Below are positions 4,786-60,817 of a DNA stretch of 64,000 nucleotides, in pieces. The notes beneath the pieces are model-generated. The model was not told where the DNA came from and did not search any database. It saw only the letters and a program-made list of their open reading frames with translations. The stretch's first letter is position 1, and every line of letters begins with the position of its first letter. The stretch is taken from contig MNDR01000039.1 of assembly GCA_001915025.1 (NCBI GenBank), positions 1,132-65,131 on the forward strand, read 5' to 3'. The stretch is from Gemmatimonadetes bacterium 13_2_20CM_2_65_7. Its GTDB lineage: Bacteria > Gemmatimonadota > Gemmatimonadetes > Gemmatimonadales > GWC2-71-9. Position numbers and translations under genes: made by a program.

Positions 4786-5288
4786 CACCGTACGTCGTAC
4801 GTCGTGCGTCGTTCCTCGCGCTGTTGCTCCTGACGCCGGCCTGGTTGCGCAGTCAAGAAATAATTGGAATACCCGTCGGTGAGACGCCCCCCCCCGTCAC
4901 GCTGCAGAATCTGAACGGCGACTCCGTCTCGTTGTCCCAATGGATCGGGAAGAAGCCCGTCATTATCGAGTTTTGGGCGACGTGGTGCCCCATTTGCGCC
5001 GAGCTGTTGCCGCGGATGGAGGCGGCGCACAAGAAGTACGGCGACCGCGCCGAGTTTCTCGTGATCGCCGTCGCCGTGAACGAGAGCCAGAACACGGTTC
5101 GGCGTCATCTCGAAAAGCAGCCGATGCCGTTCACGTTCCTCTGGGACGGGAACGGCGCAGCGGTGCGCGCCTTTCAAGCCCCGAACACGTCCTACGTCGC
5201 TGTTCTCGACACCAAAGGGCGCGTCGTGTATACGGGGGTCGGGGCGGATCAGGATATCGAGGCGGCGTTACGGCGGGCGGTTCGCTAG
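4779..5288 (+). CDS. TlpA/ResA-like extracytoplasmic thioredoxin-fold thiol:disulfide oxidoreductase
   Basis: 169 aa with a signal/anchor sequence and the WCPIC active site (EFWATWCPICAELLP). Overlaps ccdA as ATGGTGA. Confidence 0.85.
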   Translation: MVTPYVVRRASFLALLLLTPAWLRSQEIIGIPVGETPPPVTLQNLNGDSVSLSQWIGKKPVIIEFWATWCPICAELLPRMEAAHKKYGDRAEFLVIAVAVNESQNTVRRHLEKQPMPFTFLWDGNGAAVRAFQAPNTSYVAVLDTKGRVVYTGVGADQDIEAALRRAVR

Positions 5289-12811: not shown

Positions 12812-12854
12812 AATGATCAACGATCATTGGTCATTGATCATTGATCATTGAATT
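12812..12854. repeat. Tandem array of ~6 copies of a 7-nt unit (T)TGATCA, self-complementary
   Basis: The array reads atgatca acgatca ttggtca ttgatca ttgatca ttgaatt. It contains four GATC sites, is AT-rich for this genome, and lies between convergent genes. Confidence 0.8.
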
Positions 12855-13609: not shown

Positions 13610-16600
13610 TTACGAGCCGTAGGCGGCTGAGACGATGCGCTCCTGCTCTGCCTTGTGGGCCGCGGGGTAGCCTTCGGCGGGACTCGAGCGTTCCGGGCGC
13701 GACACATCGAGGAGCGCGACCGACTGCGGCAACGCCTCGCGAATCTTGGGCAGCACGAACTTGCGCGCGCCCATGTTGCGCGGCTCTTCCTGGACCCAGA
13801 CGACCTCTTTGAGATTCGGATAGCGGCGCGCGTATTCTCCGATCTCCGTGCCGGGGAAGGGATAGAGCAGCTCCAGCCGCCCGATTTTCACATGTGGCGT
13901 CTCAGTGCGGCGTGGCGAGGCGATGATGTCGTAGTAAATCTTGCCGCTGCACAACAGCAAGCGCGTGACTTTCTCGGGCCACGTCCGGTCGCGATCCCAA
14001 AGCACACTCCTGAACTGCCCCAATACGAGATCGTTGAGCTGGGAGGAGGCGGCCGGCAAGCGCAGCAAACTCTTGGGCGTCATCAGCACGAGCGGCCGGA
14101 TTTCCGTGTGCCGCGCCTGTCGCCGCAGCAGATGGAAGTATTGCGCCGGCGTGGTACAGTTCGCGACGCGAATGTTTCCTTCCGCCCCCAGCGCGAGAAA
14201 CCGCTCGACGCGCGCGCTCGAGTGCTCCGGGCCCTGGCCCTCGTAGCCGTGCGGCAGTAGCAGCGACAGCCGCGACGTCTCGCCCCATTTCGCAAGCCCC
14301 GCGATCAGGAACTGATCGATCACCACTTCGGCGCCGTTCGCGAAGTCGCCAAATTGTGCCTCCCACAGTACCAGCGCATCCTGCGCTTCGACGGCATAGC
14401 CATACTCGAAGCCGAGACAGGCGTATTCCGAGAGCGGGCTGTTGTGCAGCTCGAACGAAGCCCGGCCGTCGGGCAGGTTCTGAATCGGCGTATGTCGCGC
14501 GCCGGTGTGTATGTCGTGGAGCACGAGATGCCGCTGACTGAAGGTGCCGCGCTCGGTGTCCTGCCCGGTCAAGCGGATCGGTGTTCCCTCGATCAGCAGC
14601 GAGGCGAACGCCAACGACTCCGCGTGTGCCCACTCGATGCCGTCTTTGGACATGAGCACGTCACGACGCCGCTCGAGCTGCTTCTGCAGCTTGGGATGCA
14701 TCGCGAAGCCCTCCGGCACCGCGAGCAGCTGCTCGTTGAGCCGCTTCAGCGTCTCGGCGTCGACGGCCGTGGTGGGCTCGGGCGTGTTCTGGCGCTGGAT
14801 GCGCTGCGGCTCATCGGCGCGTTGTCCTGACTTCACCGCCTGCTGCACGGCCGCGAGCCTCTGGTAGGCGGCCTCCGCGTCCGCATCCGCTTGAGCGGCA
14901 GCGACGACGCCTTCTTGCGCGAGCTGCGCCGCGTACTTCTGACGGACGGATGGAGTCTGCTTGATCCGTTCGTACATCATCGGCTGCGTGTAGGCCGGCT
15001 CGTCGGCCTCGTTGTGACCGTAGCGGCGATATCCCACCAGATCGATCACGACGTCGCCATGGAAGTTGTCGCGGTACATCATCGCGAGCCGCACAGCCGC
15101 GAGACACGCCTCCGGATCATCGGCGTTCACGTGCACGATCGGCGCATCGAAGCCTTTGGCGAGATCGCTCGAGTAGTCGGTGGAGCGGCCTTCGCGCGGA
15201 TCCGTGGTGAAGCCGATCTGATTGTTGAGGATCAGATGGAACGTGCCGCCGGTCGTATAGCCGGGGAGTCGCGCGAGATTGAAGGTCTCCGCGACGACGC
15301 CCTGGCCCGCGAACGCGGCGTCGCCGTGCAGCAAGACCGGGAGCGCGACGTTCACGTCGAGTTGCACCGCCGCACCGCTCCGATTCGTTTGGTTCGCGCG
15401 GGCACGACCCTCGACGACCGGATTCACCGATTCCAGATGGCTGGGATTGGGCGAAACCATCACGGCGATGTCCTTGCCGCTCGCCGTGCGGTACACCCCC
15501 TCAGCGCCGTGGTGATACTTCACGTCACCGGTACCGGCGTTCCACCCTTCCGATTCAGCCGTCTCCTCGCGGCGGCCGCCCTCGAACTCCGCGAGGATCG
15601 TTTCGTACGGAACGTTCACGACGTGCGCGAGCACGTTGAGTCGTCCACGGTGCGCCATGCCGATGGTCGCCTGGCGCGTGCCGTGGGCCGCGGCGAGCTC
15701 CAGCGTGAAATCGAGCATCGGCACGGTCATGTCGAGGCCTTCGATCGAGAATCGCTTCTGGCCGAGGTATGCCTTGTGCAGGAAGCGCTCGAGCGTGTCG
15801 ACCGCCGTCAGCCGCGCCAGCAGCTGCCTCTTTCCATCCGCGGAGAGCGGCCGCCGATGCTGGCCCGATTCGATCACTTGCCTGAGCCACAGGCGCTCTT
15901 CGTGACTCCCGATGTGTTCGACCTCATAGGCGATCGTGCCGCAGTAGGTCGCCTGGAGATACGGCAGCGCGTCCGCGAGTGTCTTGCCTGGCACATAGAT
16001 GCGGAGCACTTCGGCGGGGATTCGCGCCATGATCTCCGGCGTGAGTCCCAACCGGCCGATGTCGAGGGAAGGATCGCCGGGCGGCTCGCTGCCGAGGGGA
16101 TCGAGATGGGCGGCGAGGTGGCCGAAATTCCTATGCGCCCGGACCAGCGCGTAGGCCGCAGCTACATGTTTAAGATCCTCGACACCCACGGCCTCCGGTT
16201 GGGGAAGGGGGACGGGGGAAGAGGGAAGGGTACTGCGGGGAGCCGCAGGAGTCGGAGGGGCCGCCGTGTACCCTTCCCCCTTCCCGCTTCCCCCTTCCCC
16301 TTTTGCCAGGCTCTCCGTCACCAGGTCGTAGAACCGTTCCTCTCCCTGCAACAGGGAATCCAGGTACCGCAGAAACATTCCCGACTCCGCGCCCTGAATG
16401 ATCCGGTGATCGTACGTGCTCGTGATCGTGATGATCTTCGTGCCCCCCCCGGTGATCTCGCGGATGGTGCCGGTCGCGATGATCGAGCCCTGGCCCTTCA
16501 TGAGACGCGGGACCGACGCCACGGTACCCAGCGTGCCGGGGTTTGTGAGCTGGATCGTGCCGCCGGCGAAATCGTCCGGCAGGAGCCGGTTGATGCGCGC

Positions 16601-17257
16601 CTTCTCGACGAGCGTTTCGTACGCCGCGTGGAACGCCGCGAAGTCCATCGACTCGGCGTGCTTGATCACCGGTACGACGAGCGCCCGGCTGCCGTCCTTC
16701 TTCTCGACGTCGACTGCTAGGCCCAGGCCGATGGCGCCTGGGTCGACGCGATGGGGCTTGCCGTCGATTTCCTGGAACGCGTGCGTCATGACCGGGAACC
16801 GCTTGGCCGCCTGCACGATCGCGTAGCCGATCAGGTGTGTGAACGAGATTTTCCTACCGCTTGCCGCGAGCTGGGCATTGAGCGCCTTGCGACGCGCGTC
16901 AAGGTTCGTGGCCGGGATGTCGCGGAAGGACGTCGCCGTCGGGACCGTCAGCGACTCCGTCATGTTGGCTACTAACCGAGCAGCCGGACCCGTCATGGGC
17001 ACGGCACCAGGAGCAGGGAGCATGGAGCGGGGAGCAGAAGGCGCTGGAGGAGAAGGCGCTGGAGCGAGAGGTGCGGGCGCGGTTACTGCTCCCTGCTCCT
17101 TGCTCCCTGCTCCCTGAATTATCGGCAGCTCCGCCAGCTTGCCGTTATCAAACAACTCCCGCCATTCCTGTCCTACGGAAGCCGGATCGCGGAGGTAGTC
17201 CTCGTACATCGCCTGGACGAAGGCGGCGTTGTGGGTGCCGAAGATGAATTCGCTCAC
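13610..17257 (-). CDS. sucA: Multifunctional 2-oxoglutarate dehydrogenase E1 with fused E2-type succinyltransferase catalytic domain (OdhA/Kgd architecture)
   Basis: The protein has an N-terminal 2-oxoglutarate-DH motif (NAAFVQAMYEDYLRDPASV) and an acyltransferase catalytic domain (TSTYDHRIIQGAESG). A TPP-dependent E1o follows (RLNVLAHV..., LLHGDAAFAGQGVV, LLLPHGYEGQGPEHSSAR). GTG 17257 (VSEFIFG...) is preferred over the tracked TTG 17290. Confidence 0.9.
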   Translation of the reverse strand: MSEFIFGTHNAAFVQAMYEDYLRDPASVGQEWRELFDNGKLAELPIIQGAGSKEQGAVTAPAPLAPAPSPPAPSAPRSMLPAPGAVPMTGPAARLVANMTESLTVPTATSFRDIPATNLDARRKALNAQLAASGRKISFTHLIGYAIVQAAKRFPVMTHAFQEIDGKPHRVDPGAIGLGLAVDVEKKDGSRALVVPVIKHAESMDFAAFHAAYETLVEKARINRLLPDDFAGGTIQLTNPGTLGTVASVPRLMKGQGSIIATGTIREITGGGTKIITITSTYDHRIIQGAESGMFLRYLDSLLQGEERFYDLVTESLAKGEGGSGKGEGYTAAPPTPAAPRSTLPSSPVPLPQPEAVGVEDLKHVAAAYALVRAHRNFGHLAAHLDPLGSEPPGDPSLDIGRLGLTPEIMARIPAEVLRIYVPGKTLADALPYLQATYCGTIAYEVEHIGSHEERLWLRQVIESGQHRRPLSADGKRQLLARLTAVDTLERFLHKAYLGQKRFSIEGLDMTVPMLDFTLELAAAHGTRQATIGMAHRGRLNVLAHVVNVPYETILAEFEGGRREETAESEGWNAGTGDVKYHHGAEGVYRTASGKDIAVMVSPNPSHLESVNPVVEGRARANQTNRSGAAVQLDVNVALPVLLHGDAAFAGQGVVAETFNLARLPGYTTGGTFHLILNNQIGFTTDPREGRSTDYSSDLAKGFDAPIVHVNADDPEACLAAVRLAMMYRDNFHGDVVIDLVGYRRYGHNEADEPAYTQPMMYERIKQTPSVRQKYAAQLAQEGVVAAAQADADAEAAYQRLAAVQQAVKSGQRADEPQRIQRQNTPEPTTAVDAETLKRLNEQLLAVPEGFAMHPKLQKQLERRRDVLMSKDGIEWAHAESLAFASLLIEGTPIRLTGQDTERGTFSQRHLVLHDIHTGARHTPIQNLPDGRASFELHNSPLSEYACLGFEYGYAVEAQDALVLWEAQFGDFANGAEVVIDQFLIAGLAKWGETSRLSLLLPHGYEGQGPEHSSARVERFLALGAEGNIRVANCTTPAQYFHLLRRQARHTEIRPLVLMTPKSLLRLPAASSQLNDLVLGQFRSVLWDRDRTWPEKVTRLLLCSGKIYYDIIASPRRTETPHVKIGRLELLYPFPGTEIGEYARRYPNLKEVVWVQEEPRNMGARKFVLPKIREALPQSVALLDVSRPERSSPAEGYPAAHKAEQERIVSAAYGS
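16201..16300. repeat. 100-bp imperfect palindrome inside kgd (E2-E1 linker), arms of CTTCCCC-like tandem units
   Basis: The left arm 16201-16233 (ggggaagggggacgggggaagagggaagggtac) matches the reverse complement of the right arm 16268-16300 at 30/33. The loop is 34 nt and has its own tgcgg/ccgca mini-stem. TTTT follows on the + strand. It encodes ...KGEGGSGKGEGYTAAPPTPAAPRSTLPSSPVPLPQ... in frame. Confidence 0.85.
17008..17116. repeat. 109-bp imperfect palindrome inside kgd (N-terminal linker), arms of CTGCTCC tandem units
   Basis: The left arm 17008-17037 matches the reverse complement of the right arm 17086-17116 at 28/31 with one indel. The 48-nt loop contains a 15-bp direct repeat agaaggcgctggag x2. 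It encodes ...QGAGSKEQGAVTAPAPLAPAPSPPAPSAPRSMLPAPGAVP... in frame. Confidence 0.85.
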
Positions 17258-17292
17258 GGGTTGGAATCTATAGGGTATCTTATTTCGCAAGT

Positions 17293-19933: not shown

Positions 19934-21228
19934 CTGACGCGCCGTGTCTTCCTTCTCATGAAGTCCATCAAAATGAACTGGCCCAGCGTCATCGTGTTCG
20001 TGAAGTAGGCCTTCCCCCGGCAGATCGCCGAGACCTTCTTTACGAACTCGACCAGGCTGCGGTCGCGCGCGAGCATGAACGTGTTGATCAGGATGCCGCT
20101 GCGGCGGCACAGCGCGACCTCGCGGTAGGTCGCCTGGAGAATGTGCGGGTCGAGGCCCATCGAGTTGACGTAGATCCGGCCGTCGGGCTGCGTCAGCGCC
20201 GATGGCTTCCCATCGGTGATCATGATGATCTGCCGCATGTCCTTGCGCTGACCCATCAGGATCCGGCGCGCCAGCTTCAGCCCTTCCGTCGTGTTCGTGT
20301 GATACGGCCCCACCTGCGCGTGCGCCAACTGGCCGATCGGAATCTCCTCGGCCGTATCGTGGAACAGCACGACCCGCAGCGTGTCGCCGGGGAACTGCGT
20401 GCGAATCAGGTGCGTGAGCGCGAGCGCGACTTTTTTCGCCGGTGTGAAGCGATCTTCGCCGTACAGAATCATCGAGTGCGAGCAGTCGAGCATCAGCACT
20501 GTCGCGGACGACGAGCGGTATTCCGCCTGATGCACCATCAAATCGTCGTACTCGAGATTGATCGGCACGCCGAGACCTTCGCGCTTCAGTGCGTGCGATA
20601 GCGTCGCGTTGACGTCGAGGTTCAGCGTGTCACCATACTCGTAACGCTTGCTCGCGGCCTCGGCCTCGACGCCCGTCGCCAGGTGCTCCGTCTCGTGCGC
20701 GCCGAAGCTCGATTTGCCGATGCTCCCCAGCAAATGCTTCAGGGTTCGATAACCGAGAAAATCGATGCCTTTGTCGGTGAGATTGAACTGCACCTGCTGC
20801 GCGGCTTCCTTGGCCATGCCGCCTGGGCCGAGCACCGGCTGCTGCGCGCCGGGCATCTTCGGGGCCTGCTGCAGATTCAGATATCCCTCCTCGATCAGCT
20901 TCTGCACGATCTGATCGAGCAGCTCGGCAAGCTGGCGCTGCAGCTCCGCGTCCTTTTGCGCGTCGCCGGTCGAGTCGCCCCGCAGGACGTTGAGCATGTC
21001 CTGTGTGAGCTGGCCCGAGTCCATCAGCGCCTGGAGAATCGCCTGGCGGAGCGCGTCCAGTGAGCGGTCGGGATCTTCCTCGCCGAACTCGCCCCAGAAC
21101 GGATGCGAGTACGGACCGCCGGCGAACCCGGATTGCAACAGGAAGTCCGCGAGCTGATCGAGCAGCGCCTGGAGATTGAGCGTCTCGAGCAGACCGGGGA
21201 CGTAGCGGCTGTAAGTCGTGTGTCGCAT
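19930..21228 (-). CDS. VWA domain-containing protein (BchD/CoxE-like partner of a chelatase-type ATPase)
   Basis: 432 aa. The C-terminal von Willebrand A domain has a MIDAS-like motif [14 protein letters not shown]. The stop overlaps the amtB stop (CTAG). Confidence 0.7.
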
Positions 21229-35897: not shown

Positions 35898-37162
35898 TCG
35901 TAGCGTCCCGCCGCGCGATAGGAGTCATCGAGCAGCTCGACCGGGTGACGCACGCGCGCCGGAACCCTGGCGGCCGCCAACCCAGCGCCGATTTGCATCA
36001 CGCAGCCGGGATTGCCGGTCGCGACGACCTGCGGCGCCGCGACTCGCAGCCGCTCGATCTTTGCCGCCAACACCGCGCGCGACATCTCCGGTTCGAGCAG
36101 TGTGAACAGCCCCGCGCTCCCGCAACACTCGGCGGCGCCGGGCACGTGCACGAGCTCGAGCAGCGGGATCGCCGCGAAGAGCTTCAGCGGCGGAACGGCG
36201 ACGCCTTGCGCGTGCAGGAGATGACACGGTGGATCGTACGCGACGTGCAGGTCGAGCGGGGCTCCCGGCACCGGTCCCTTGATCGCATCGCCGGCGAGGA
36301 GCTCGGTCACGTCGCGAACGCGCGCAGCGAGACGCTCGCATCGCTCGTCACCGAGGAGACGCCCGTACTCTTTCATCATGGCCCCACATCCGGCGCTGTT
36401 CACGACGATGGGTTCCTCGCCATCGCCGAATGCATCGACATTCTTGCGCGCCAGCTCGCGTGCCTCGTCGATCAATCCCGCGTGTGCATGCAGCGCACCA
36501 CAGCACCCCTGGCCCGAGACTTCGCGGACGTCGTAGCCGTTGATACCTAAGGTGCGCACGGTGGCATCGTGGACGTGGGAGAAGAGACCGTCTTGGACGC
36601 AGCCCCGGAATAACTGGACGGTAAGGGACGGTAAGGGACGGTAAGGGACGGTAGGAGTTATGCGCCTACCCTCACCGTCTCTTACCGTCCCATACCGTCT
36701 CTTACCGTCAGGTTTTGTCGCCGCCAGCATCCCCATGGCAAATCGGAATCTTCCCCAGCCAGCGAACAGTCGCGGGAGTCCGGTCGCTCTCAGCACGCGA
36801 GCGAACCAGTACACGACCGCACTCACTCCCGGCGTCGTCAGCGCCCAGAGCGCCATTCTCGCAAGGCGCGGAACGCCGCGAGCGGTGGTGAGTCGTGCGC
36901 GAGCCGCCTCGAGGCCATGGCCATACTGCACACCCGAAGGGCAGACGGGCTCGCAGCCGCGGCAGCCGAGACAGCGATCGAGGTGGTAGGCGAGCGCGGC
37001 ATCGTCGGCGGTCAGGTCGCCGCGCTCGAGGGCCCGCATCAGCTCGATGCGGCCGCGTGGTGAATCGGATTCATCTCCGGTGGCGAGGAACGTCGGGCAA
37101 GCTTGAAGACAGAAACCGCAATGCACGCATGCGTCCAGCCCTTCGAAGCCTCCTCGCGTCAT
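35894..37162 (-). CDS. glcF: Glycolate oxidase iron-sulfur subunit
   Basis: Start at MTRGGFEGLDACVHCGFCLQACPTF (ATG 37162, ATGA overlap). There is a second cluster motif CLGCRGCEPVCPSGV and two CCG-type domains (FRGCVQD..., PPCHLLHAQG...CCGSAG). Confidence 0.85.
   Translation of the reverse strand: MTRGGFEGLDACVHCGFCLQACPTFLATGDESDSPRGRIELMRALERGDLTADDAALAYHLDRCLGCRGCEPVCPSGVQYGHGLEAARARLTTARGVPRLARMALWALTTPGVSAVVYWFARVLRATGLPRLFAGWGRFRFAMGMLAATKPDGKRRYGTVRDGEGRRITPTVPYRPLPSLTVQLFRGCVQDGLFSHVHDATVRTLGINGYDVREVSGQGCCGALHAHAGLIDEARELARKNVDAFGDGEEPIVVNSAGCGAMMKEYGRLLGDERCERLAARVRDVTELLAGDAIKGPVPGAPLDLHVAYDPPCHLLHAQGVAVPPLKLFAAIPLLELVHVPGAAECCGSAGLFTLLEPEMSRAVLAAKIERLRVAAPQVVATGNPGCVMQIGAGLAAARVPARVRHPVELLDDSYRAAGRYE
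36614..36712. repeat. 99-bp imperfect palindrome inside glcF, arms of four GACGGTAAGG units
   Basis: The left arm 36614-36655 reads ctg(gacggtaagg)x3 gacggtagg. The right arm 36665-36712 is its reverse complement at about 85-90% unit identity, with a 9-nt loop agttatgcg. TTTT follows on the + strand. It encodes ...KPDGKRRYGTVRDGEGRRITPTVPYRPLPSLTVQ... in frame. Confidence 0.9.
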
Positions 37163-59767: not shown

Positions 59768-60752
59768 GGTCGAACGCGCGGTCGACGACATTCGCCGCAG
59801 ATGGGTGCCGGACGGCCGGCTCGGCGTCTTCGAGGTCTCCCTCCTGCCGAAGGGTGTCACAGGCGTGACCTCGAGTCGCGACGCGCGCGATGCGCTGCGG
59901 CGACTTGCCGGTGAACAGGAGCTGGTCGAGCAGGTGCGTCTGCTGCCGGACGAGACCGTCACCGACGCCGCCGCCATCGTCACCGCAGCACTGGCGCCGC
60001 TGCTCGACGCTCCGCAGCTGTCCGCGCCGCGCGTCAACGAAGCGCTGCACGGCGAATCACTCGATGTCCTGGAGCGCCGCGACGACTGGCTGCGCGTGCG
60101 CGCGCCCGACGGCTACGTCGCGTGGACCCACGCCGGCTATGTAGCGACGGGCGCGACGGATTGGGCGGACGATTGGCGCGAGCGCGCAACCGCGCGATCG
60201 CTGAGCGCCGACATTGTAACGACCTACAGCCGGCGTCGCCTTCCCACTGGCGCGCGCGTCGCGTTGCGGCGTGGGGTGGTAGAGCTTGCCGATGGGCTGG
60301 AGGGCGCCGTGGCCGGCGGCTACGTCCGCCGGGAGCAGGAGCTGCGCGCGGAAGCGCGGCACCTCGCGTTGCCCGAGCTCGCGCTCAAGTGGTTTTCCGG
60401 CGCGCCATATCTGTGGGGTGGCCGCACGGAGTGGGGCATCGATTGCTCGGGACTCGCGCAGGCGGTGTACGCGGCACGCGGCATTCGGCTGCCGCGCGAC
60501 AGCGATCAGCAATTCGTTGAGGGAAAGGAGCTCGCGATCGCCGCGGACGGGAAAGGCTACGAAGCGGGCGATCTGCTCTTCTTTGCTGAACGCGGTCGAG
60601 TCTCTCACGTCGCGTTGTGGTCCGGGGCTGGGCACGTCGTGCATGCCGCGCTCTCGCGTGGCGGCGTCGCCTCCGACCATTTGTTCGGTGATGAACCGCG
60701 CATGAGACGGCTGCGGGAAATTCTGGTGGGTGTGAGGCGGTTCGGCGGTTAA
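59760..60752 (+). CDS. C40 (NlpC/P60) peptidase with N-terminal SH3b-like domains
   Basis: The catalytic region is YLWGGRTEWGIDCSGLAQAVY...GDLLFF...SHVALW, giving a Cys/His pair. Overlaps the upstream gene by 8 nt. Confidence 0.8.
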   Translation: MDKVERAVDDIRRRWVPDGRLGVFEVSLLPKGVTGVTSSRDARDALRRLAGEQELVEQVRLLPDETVTDAAAIVTAALAPLLDAPQLSAPRVNEALHGESLDVLERRDDWLRVRAPDGYVAWTHAGYVATGATDWADDWRERATARSLSADIVTTYSRRRLPTGARVALRRGVVELADGLEGAVAGGYVRREQELRAEARHLALPELALKWFSGAPYLWGGRTEWGIDCSGLAQAVYAARGIRLPRDSDQQFVEGKELAIAADGKGYEAGDLLFFAERGRVSHVALWSGAGHVVHAALSRGGVASDHLFGDEPRMRRLREILVGVRRFGG

Positions 60753-60806
60753 GCGGTTAGGCGGTTCGAGATGCCGCCCGCCTAACCGCCCAACCGCTTA
60801 ACCGCC
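60736..60806. repeat. 71-bp imperfect palindrome of four GGCGGTTA units per arm, at the 3' end of the C40 peptidase gene
   Basis: The left arm is ggcggttc ggcggtta agcggtta ggcggttc (60736-60768). The right arm is ccgcccg cctaaccg cccaaccg cttaaccg cc (60774-60806), with about 26/32 complementarity. tatttta follows on the + strand, so it could be the intrinsic terminator of this operon. The stop codon TAA 60750-60752 lies inside the left arm. Confidence 0.85.
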
Positions 60807-60817
60807 TATTTTAGTCC

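Follow-up and report, generated by a model that had tools for sequence, protein, structure and literature searches.

Hairpins in both interdomain linkers of kgd

The window, by which we mean the whole 64,000-nt stretch of DNA that was analysed, carries on its minus strand an ORF of 1226 aa (13610–17290) which, judged from the ORF list, its translation, and Pfam and PDB matches, is kgd of a Gemmatimonadales MAG, a kgd/odhA-type gene for a 2-oxoglutarate dehydrogenase in which an E2-like acyltransferase domain is fused to E1o. The protein matched the Kgd/OdhA structures PDB 8P5R and 8P5T over its full length (E = 9.5e-294 for 8P5R), and Pfam found in one chain the 2-oxoglutarate dehydrogenase N-terminal motif (2-oxogl_dehyd_N, PF16078; residues 19–49, 17144–17236, upstream of linker 1), the E2-like acyltransferase catalytic domain (PF00198, E = 7e-44; residues 96–316, 16343–17005) and E1o (E1_dh, Transket_pyr and OxoGdeHyase_C), with E1 beginning at residue 499. 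An in-frame GTG at 17257 is likely to be the true start of kgd, because all orthologues begin at xVSEF. Two hairpins lie well inside the ORF and encode the linkers that flank the E2-like domain on both sides: linker 1 (17008–17116) and linker 2 (16201–16300), the latter between the E2-like domain and E1o. A sequence-only reading had placed the first palindrome in the N-terminal linker of kgd and had described it as the second such element of the gene, again at a domain boundary; the Pfam and PDB matches agree with this placement, the sister hairpin is real, and Pfam puts both hairpins at boundaries.

In the sense of the mRNA, the 5' arm of the linker 1 hairpin (17086–17116, minus strand) consists of four G-rich heptamers (GGGAGCA GGGAGCA AGGAGCA GGGAGCA G) with three GGG runs and one GG, and encodes QGAGSKEQGA; the 3' arm (17008–17037) consists of four C-rich heptamers (CTGCTCC CCGCTCC ATGCTCC CTGCTCC) and encodes APRSMLPAPG, the unit TGCTCCC of the plus strand being GGGAGCA in the mRNA. 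The 48-nt loop between the arms (17038–17085) encodes the Ala/Pro-rich middle of the linker (VTAPAPLAPAPSPPAPS). Alignment of the two arms gave 28 matches, two mismatches and one indel over 31 columns, and the best ungapped arm pair (17010–17044 with 17079–17113) matches at 86% over 35 nt. These results bear out what had been read from the letters, namely a match of 28/31 with one indel, four CTGCTCC-like heptamers in each arm, a loop of 48 nt and the translation QGAGSKEQGA...LPAPGAVP. As 109 is not divisible by 3, the palindrome is in frame only in the sense that translation of the ORF passes through it without meeting a stop. A direct-repeat search located a 15-bp (five-codon) tandem duplication at 17031–17060, with copies at 17031–17045 and 17046–17060 that are 14/15 identical, the first of which overlaps the inner end of the 3' arm. 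This duplication had been claimed to encode APSPP/APSAP and is given here as PAPSP/PAPSA, a cyclic shift of the same in-frame repeat. The suggested comparison of its copy number was made: two copies are present in the source allele and in L147, a metagenome allele 97% identical to the source kgd, whereas L146, L148 and L150, the alleles that come next in similarity, have a single copy and are 15 nt shorter than the source allele. The sister hairpin (16201–16300, minus strand), characterised by an inverted-repeat search and recoding tests, belongs to another unit family (GGGGAAG x4 ... GGGTAC / GTACCC ... CTTCCCC x4), has arms of 33 nt that match at 91% and a loop of 34 nt, and is translated in linker 2 as KGEGGSGKGEGYT...STLPSSPVPLP.

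With actinobacterial Kgd/OdhA (8P5R, 8P5T) and the E2 linkers of 2-oxo acid dehydrogenases the two linkers share their position and their nature as flexible, low-complexity tethers. Linker 1 aligns with the Ala/Pro-rich linker of mycobacterial Kgd, and the arm-encoded peptides of linker 2 appear as gaps in that alignment and are extra with respect to the solved enzymes. The difference from actinobacterial Kgd/OdhA is that the DNA coding for these tethers is a repeat hairpin, whereas the linker DNA of other phyla has no excess structure: among 52–59 Kgd orthologues of other phyla no excess linker fold was found (mean z of −0.05 and 0.05 for the two linkers).

Repeat identity is kept beyond the needs of the peptide

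The predicted RNA fold of linker 1 has an energy of −67.7 kcal/mol, well below that of dinucleotide shuffles (z = −5.7) and codon-order shuffles (z = −5.2), and is no better than that of synonymous recodings (z = −0.2). Because linker 1 equals the recodings in energy, stability cannot separate an RNA-level from a peptide-level constraint, whereas exact repeat statistics can. Both such statistics lay beyond all 1000 synonymous recodings: the exact inverted-repeat score was 22, against 9.0 ± 1.6 for the recodings (reached by 0/1000), and the arm had 19 of 21 possible lag-7 matches. Codon choice therefore keeps exact repeat identity well beyond what the peptide needs. Translation has also filtered the linker sequence, which is free of stops and of Cys. 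Among 7,976 linker residues there was no Cys, against 1.8–4.5% Cys and 1.3–2.6% stops in the other two frames, and array units are interrupted where an in-frame TGA would arise. Mismatches between arms were of the G.U type in mRNA sense in 39 cases and of the A.C type in 104, so that G.U pairs are not enriched in the sense of the mRNA. Together, the repeat statistics, the folding energies and the mismatches point to a signal in the DNA rather than in the RNA.

Nothing indicates that the hairpin regulates kgd. Two further candidates were considered and set aside: neither an intrinsic terminator nor an internal promoter was found on either strand between 15900 and 17500, with no T run after either arm, and a scan with Rfam 15 for a curated RNA family yielded nothing beyond non-specific hairpin hits on eukaryotic miRNA precursors, all far below the gathering threshold.

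Occupancy and turnover of the linkers among kgd alleles

With at least 20 coaxial pairs as the criterion, hairpins were present in linker 1 of 84 of 96 and in linker 2 of 89 of 97 kgd alleles of the genus, that is, in about 90% for each linker. They use at least 15 unit types, with a period of 7 in 77 linker 1 and 79 linker 2 hairpins, and the G-rich arm comes first in 78/84 and 85/89, respectively. In 17 congeners the folds of both linkers are far stronger than those of shuffled sequences (mean z = −3.9 and −4.0), and all 97 alleles stay in frame through both linkers. The same element type occupies linker 1 in some species and linker 2 in others.

Alleles that are nearly identical elsewhere swap their linkers as cassettes with sharp boundaries. 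The linker 2 sequences of L001 and L147 are unrelated, with about 97% identity between the two alleles as a whole, and in the pairs L187/L188 and L188/L191 the replaced tracts have sharp edges and take in synonymous differences over about 20 nt of flanking sequence. Among 23 near-identical allele pairs, which were chosen on distant E1 windows and are not phylogenetically independent, linker 1 differs in 15 and linker 2 in 13, against none for the central E2 windows. Loops are not conserved between copies, differing in both length and sequence, and only the arms, with a GGGTAC inner end in one family, are common; loop identity among alleles of the same type is 0.57, against 0.55 at 4-fold sites. 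In GGGAGCA-type alleles the arms are far more conserved than the loops, a comparison that is partly circular since this group was picked by arm type. Arms remain at least 85% complementary although 4-fold sites are near saturation between alleles.

A repeat class spread over the genome and the order

The palindrome belongs to a rapidly changing family of hairpins with repeat arms, which occurs across soil Gemmatimonadales genomes and is not specific to kgd. The repeat class occurs genome-wide and genus-wide, with hairpins of many units in both kgd linkers of most alleles. The source genome contains 84 heptamer arrays, and 7 was its most enriched array period (46 arrays, against 0–17 for periods 5, 8, 10 and 11). 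Arrays are 28–36 nt long, apart from one of 50 nt, and the GGGAGCA array is found at 16 loci. Tandem-repeat arms with a period of 7, 8 or 10 were present in 30 of the 46 long inverted repeats of the genome. The first arm is G-rich (positive G−C skew) in 29 of these 30 repeat-armed hairpins and has zero skew in one. Most of them are intergenic, some lying directly 3' of tRNA genes, and no target-site duplications or conserved outer flanks were found around the 30. Unit families are discrete and common to unrelated loci and genomes. A (GGGGAMG)n-GGGTAC terminus recurs, with GGGTAC as the inner end after GGGGAAG arrays at about 10 loci, and several common units contain no GGG at all (GGAGCAC, GCCGTGC, GGTGCGC, GCGAAAT and TGATCAT). 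Across the order, GGGAGCA-related arrays were detected in 18 of 81 sampled genomes (family f1, 11/27; f3, 6/26; f2, 0/27), with match counts that range 20-fold among congeners.

Many single, unpaired arrays lie inside other ORFs, among them the loops of many enzymes, and AlaRS, PurL and other essential genes carry such arrays. The AlaRS loops hold different heptamer-derived peptides according to species at near-constant length. In 6 of 19 genomes the spacer between a tRNA gene and tuf is empty; most of the others have various hairpins or partial arrays there, and in these filled states part of the spacer is replaced and none is added.

Relation to known repeat systems

The closest known kind are the G-rich heptameric simple-sequence repeats of Xanthomonas (GGGAATC) and Nostoc (GGGGAYT, STRR type), whose preference for four units has been linked to G4 formation (Rehm et al. 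2015, PMC4692102). Shared with these arrays are tandem 7-nt G-rich units in many dispersed copies with about four units preferred, frequent convergent array pairs able to form a stem-loop, and a repeat type that is preserved among relatives while its length varies. The present class differs in its at least 15 units plus units of 8 and 10 nt, in copies that are translated in frame as protein linkers or loops, and in the swapping of whole cassettes between near-identical alleles. Moreover, the Xanthomonas and Nostoc arrays are non-coding and under-represented in genes, which does not hold for the kgd pair, though most paired copies are intergenic here as well. Rickettsia palindromic elements (RPE) are about 100–150 bp long and are inserted in frame and translated at permissive sites of unrelated housekeeping genes (PMC10969869). 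The present palindrome resembles them in its size and in its in-frame readthrough within a housekeeping gene, at a position that tolerates it; RPE families, however, have a full-length consensus and a conserved peptide. Copies of the present class have only their arms in common, these arms are built of tandem microsatellites, the loops are unrelated, and the sites examined showed no insertion signature. REP/REPIN elements are short, dispersed, hairpin-forming repeats, often arranged as inverted doublets, that are mostly intergenic and are mobilised by RAYT (Y1) transposases. The present repeats are likewise dispersed, short and hairpin-forming, occur as inverted pairs and are mostly intergenic. 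The genome contains two Y1 transposase genes (PF01797; G000:C38:16906–17205 and 20157–20438), and a link of the arrays to a RAYT/REP system was rejected, as the flanks of both genes carry an unrelated REP-like repeat (CCGTGCCCTAAAGGGCCGGCTCGGCC) in place of heptamer arrays. Quasi-palindrome template-switch mutagenesis, known from E. coli (Ripley model), keeps up imperfect arm complementarity at the DNA level without selection; it is a mutational mechanism rather than a repeat family, and may operate here.

Origin and maintenance of the hairpins

We consider it probable that the palindrome is a copy, lying within coding sequence, of a lineage-specific class of repeats that perpetuates itself at the DNA level, is tolerated and trimmed by translation, and has no regulatory role in kgd expression. 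The class consists of convergent inverted pairs of short tandem arrays, with about four units per arm, a unit length of 7, 8 or 10 nt and the G-rich arm 5'. Its two copies in kgd are translated as the flexible linkers on either side of the E2-like domain: a Gly/Ser/Glu/Lys stretch comes from the G-rich arm, Ala/Pro from the loop and Pro/Ser/Leu from the C-rich arm. The repeat may persist because a tether needs only length and flexibility. The likeness of the arms could be kept by DNA-level processes, with slippage or gene conversion acting within arrays and template switching between the quasi-palindrome arms, and whole linker alleles may be imported by homologous recombination, possibly stimulated by the hairpin itself. 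Against this explanation stand the occupancy of the kgd linkers, which exceeds that of the sole intergenic site examined, the tRNA-tuf spacer, and the lasting complementarity of the arms (at least 85%) between alleles whose 4-fold sites are near saturation. As a purely neutral repeat should decay, some force that maintains the arms is needed.

In a rival explanation the hairpins are a functional mRNA structure that would slow ribosomes at the two domain boundaries, letting the N-terminal motif, the E2-like domain and E1o fold in turn. The location of both hairpins at domain boundaries, arms rich in Shine-Dalgarno-like GGAG, the retention of a hairpin at each linker in about 90% of 97 alleles despite complete sequence turnover, and arms that are conserved while loops evolve like synonymous sites (by the partly circular comparison above) would all fit. 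We nevertheless regard pausing as improbable, since Kgd of Actinomycetota, Acidobacteriota and others lacks the structure (mean z about 0), sense G.U mismatches are not enriched, and the same repeats occur between genes and as partnerless single arrays in many enzyme loops; selection for stability would, in addition, not require exact heptamers, given that the energy of linker 1 equals that of random recodings. An unlikely source of the copies is a non-autonomous mobile element of the MITE, REPIN or RPE kind, moved by a transposase in trans, with the heptamer arrays as terminal inverted repeats. It would account for the discrete unit families common to unrelated loci and genomes, the GGGTAC inner terminus, the occurrence of one element type in linker 1 or linker 2 depending on species, presence or absence in the tRNA-tuf spacer and the uneven GGGAGCA counts of congeners. 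Neither the 30 hairpins nor the tRNA-tuf spacer revealed a target-site duplication or a conserved outer flank, however, loops are unconserved between copies, and the two Y1/RAYT-like genes are flanked by a different repeat. The exchange of units in AlaRS loops at near-constant length looks like replacement and not insertion, and between close alleles the replaced stretches bring along synonymous differences in their flanks, the trace expected of homologous recombination.

Selection on DNA structure itself, through a G-quadruplex in the G-rich arms or a cruciform that serves as a recombination hot spot or as a replication or transcription signal, is very unlikely. The minimal G4 motif is GGGNNNN x4, the four units of each arm agree with the preference tied to G4 (PMC4692102), linker replacement is concentrated on the hairpins, and the orientation with the G-rich arm 5' is near-universal; yet the arm in linker 1 has only three GGG runs, and diversifying the tether of a cytoplasmic enzyme has no apparent benefit. 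As a general explanation the G-quadruplex was rejected because many common units lack GGG. Slippage by one 7-nt unit would shift the frame and could switch kgd off and on, in-ORF tandem units that are not a multiple of 3 being a classical substrate for phase variation, but such a switch is scarcely credible for short (about four units), imperfect arrays that are in frame in every allele, in a core TCA-cycle enzyme, with the same arrays in AlaRS, PurL and other essential genes.

Simple slippage accounts neither for the orientation with the G-rich arm 5' nor for the discrete unit families that loci share, and both count against the favoured explanation. A possible, though doubtful, extension of the self-perpetuating repeat class is an active, lineage-specific DNA process by which hairpins with repeat arms are written, and written anew, at sites that tolerate them, including both kgd tethers and surface loops. 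A candidate for the writing step is a form of break repair that extends each 3' end by templated synthesis, using one and the same short G-rich unit, before the ends are rejoined; it would directly give the geometry of a G-rich arm 5' and a C-rich arm 3' as well as discrete unit families.

In practical terms, such hairpins can break assemblies, mislead finders of RNA structures and repeats, and mimic regulatory elements, and they may serve as a marker for strain typing. Should the writing process be true, the protein linkers and surface loops of these bacteria would owe their making and continual replacement to a genomic repeat machine rather than to ordinary point mutation. If the favoured reading of the palindrome as a coding copy of a repeat class is right, the sequence of interdomain tethers in core enzymes of these abundant uncultured soil bacteria is set by a DNA repeat process and not by selection at the protein level. 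The tethers are then the fastest-changing and most recombining parts of their genes, and the system is a natural experiment on how disordered protein segments arise from DNA that is selfish or driven by mutation.

Both linkers of the kgd E2-like domain are encoded by repeat-armed hairpins

The window is part of contig C35 in a Gemmatimonadales MAG of 2.68 Mb (65% G+C) and carries, on the minus strand at 13610-17290, an ORF of 1226 aa coding for a kgd/OdhA-type 2-oxoglutarate dehydrogenase. Over its whole length the product matched mycobacterial and corynebacterial Kgd/OdhA structures (8P5R, E = 9.5e-294; 8P5T), and Pfam assigned residues 19-49 to a 2-oxogl_dehyd_N motif, residues 96-316 to an E2 acyltransferase domain and residues 499-1223 to E1o domains. 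The palindrome at 17008-17116 proved to be built as the sequence-only reading had described it: the arms (17008-17037 and 17086-17116) match in 28/31 columns with one indel, each consists of four heptamers (unit GGGAGCA in mRNA sense), the 48-nt loop contains a 15-bp (5-codon) tandem duplication, and the translation agrees. The second hairpin that had been claimed for the same gene was also present at 16201-16300, with GGGGAAG units and 33-nt arms (91%). The two hairpins encode the linkers on both sides of the E2-like domain (17008-17116, linker 1; 16201-16300, linker 2). No Rfam family was found for the linker hairpin region, and neither a terminator nor a promoter was found at the hairpins.

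Linker-1 RNA folded far better than dinucleotide shuffles (z = -5.7) and codon-order shuffles (z = -5.2). Among 1000 synonymous recodings sampled from the genome's own codon usage, none attained the exact inverted-repeat score of linker 1 (22 versus 9.0 +/- 1.6) or its lag-7 periodicity (19/21 versus 12.7 +/- 1.5), and both measures were likewise unmatched by all 1000 recodings for linker 2. Folding energy was no better than that of the recodings for linker 1 (z = -0.2); linker 2 gave z = -3.2. With a Gly-rich-then-Pro-rich peptide, any G+C-rich coding would fold about equally well. As repeat identity was unmatched and linker-1 folding energy ordinary, the special feature is exact DNA repeat identity rather than thermodynamic stability. 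Translation has left its marks: Cys is absent from all 7,976 residues of kgd linkers, whereas the other two frames would yield 1.8-4.5% Cys and 1.3-2.6% stops, and array units are interrupted at would-be in-frame TGA triplets (e.g. CGGTCAGCGGTGAGCGG).

Distribution among relatives

Both kgd linkers folded well beyond shuffles in 17 species of the genus (mean z = -3.9 and -4.0), whereas Kgd orthologues of other phyla (n = 52-59) had a mean z of about 0, showing that the enzyme does not require the hairpin structure. After the allele set had been enlarged with 80 further soil-metagenome alleles, at least 20 coaxial pairs were found for linker 1 in 84/96 and for linker 2 in 89/97 alleles; of these hairpins, 77 and 79, respectively, had arms of period 7, and 78/84 and 85/89 had the G-rich arm 5'. 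The linker hairpins of the 97 alleles draw on at least 15 unit types, and the element type with a GGGTAC...GTACCC inner end forms linker 2 in this genome and linker 1 in others. GGGAGCA arrays were present in 18/81 sampled genomes of the order (11/27 in family f1, 6/26 in f3 and 0/27 in f2), with 3 to 62 matches among congeners.

A genome-wide class of repeats

The genome has 84 heptamer arrays with three or more units (GGGGAAG 12, GGGAAAC 11, GGGAGCA 9, CGTGCGT 7, GCGAAAT 5), and seven was its most enriched period. Only 46 long inverted repeats were found, 30 of them with tandem-repeat arms of period 7 (n = 15), 8 (n = 10) or 10 (n = 5). The first arm was G-rich in 29/30 and the remaining one had zero skew; because this geometry reads alike on either strand, it is a genuine feature of these hairpins. 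Most repeat-armed hairpins are intergenic, two directly 3' of tRNA genes. Arrays that lack a partner are translated in frame as loops in many enzymes, among them AlaRS, PurL, an E2 protein and a molybdopterin oxidoreductase. In this genome, units bearing stop triplets (TGATCAT) were seen only outside ORFs and seem confined to non-coding DNA.

Several further members were observed. The window contains a TGATCAT-type heptamer array lacking an open frame at 12822-12852 (GATCATTGGTCATTGATCATTGATCATTGAA), ~760 bp past the kgd stop codon, a CGTACGT/CGTGCGT array near the 5' end of a 178-aa ORF (4789-4812), whose unit also builds a tRNA-tuf hairpin on contig C34, an intergenic hairpin at 36617-36709 with decamer-repeat arms (GACGGTAAGG x3.5; 36-nt arms, 92%), a decamer family with four further loci in the genome, and an octamer-armed hairpin at a gene end (60735-60807; GGCGGTTN; 30-nt arms, 87%), one of about 10 in the genome. 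Elsewhere, a CGGGTAC x4 array (G000:C1:23672-23704) encodes the linker (PIPGTRYPVPG) preceding the catalytic domain of a 455-aa E2 acyltransferase, a gene separate from kgd, and the E2-type tethers of this genome seem generally to be made from such repeats. One 539-aa ORF holds C-rich and G-rich GGGGAAG-family arrays ~1 kb apart (G000:C65:12651-12680 and 13718-13745), one of which shares 30 identical nt with the arm of kgd linker 2. Copies of a REP-like repeat (CCGTGCCCTAAAGGGCCGGCTCGGCC...) different from the heptamer arrays flank each of two Y1 (IS200/RAYT-like) transposase genes (G000:C38:16906-17205 and 20157-20438; L119, L120), apparently as a separate REP/RAYT system within this genome.

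Turnover of the linkers and of other sites

The closest kgd allele (L147, from a metagenome; ~97% identical) shares linker 1 with the present kgd, duplicated 15-mer included, and has an unrelated linker 2. The allele pairs L187/L188 and L188/L191 have near-identical flanks and sharp-edged replaced segments of ~170-190 nt that take in ~20 nt of flanking synonymous differences, the signature that homologous-recombination import of a divergent allele would leave. A set of 23 allele pairs was chosen solely because their distant E1 windows were at least 96% identical. Identity fell below 85% in linker 1 in 15 pairs, in linker 2 in 13 and in adjacent windows in 1-3, and in no pair did it do so in the three central E2 windows; although the pairs are not independent of each other, the concentration of these differences on the linkers is clear. 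In a congener (L002, genome G016), linker 1 carries a second copy of its C-rich arm (SSAPSSVLPAPSAPSSVLPAP), an in-frame expansion differing from the 15-bp duplication of the present kgd.

Heptamer arrays encode two surface loops of AlaRS (G000:C85:6497-8758, L121; residues ~199-208 and ~458-468; EKRETGHGKR and AGKGEGGRGKD in this genome), and across 24 congeners these loops are nearly constant in length, with peptides from different heptamer units. The tRNA-tuf spacer (G000:C34:20123-20193; L226/L227) holds a CGTGCGT hairpin; among the orthologous loci (L228-L247) it is an empty 53-nt spacer in 6/19 genomes and carries hairpins of various units or partial arrays in the others, which points to the gain, loss or replacement of repeats at this single intergenic site.

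Origin and maintenance

Among described classes of repeat, the closest are the G-rich heptamers of Xanthomonas and Nostoc, in which four units are preferred and convergent inverted pairs are formed (PMC4692102); those repeats, however, are largely non-coding with one unit per genome (PMC4692102), whereas the kgd hairpins are translated and use at least 15 unit types. Palindromic elements lying in frame within genes have been described in Rickettsia, but these, unlike the Gemmatimonadales hairpins, have a whole-length consensus (PMC10969869). Our literature search found no description of a repeat-armed hairpin class in Gemmatimonadota.

An mRNA structure that pauses ribosomes ranks below a repeat acting at the DNA level, since arm mismatches on the sense strand show no G.U bias (39 of G.U type versus 104 of A.C type), which counts against selection for mRNA pairing. 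Three other readings also rank below the DNA-level repeat: mobility in the manner of MITE/REPIN elements, a G4 or cruciform kept by selection, and a phase switch. A dedicated repeat-writing process is the more novel, less probable possibility; it could account for two features that simple slippage does not give, the universal placing of the G-rich arm first and the discrete families of units that recur at different loci.

The best-supported explanation is that the kgd hairpin is a self-perpetuating DNA-level repeat, tolerated and trimmed by translation. Arm complementarity may be kept up by slippage or conversion inside the arrays, by template switching between quasi-palindrome arms or by recombination import of whole cassettes. 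Such a repeat would be tolerated in kgd because the tether needs length and flexibility only.
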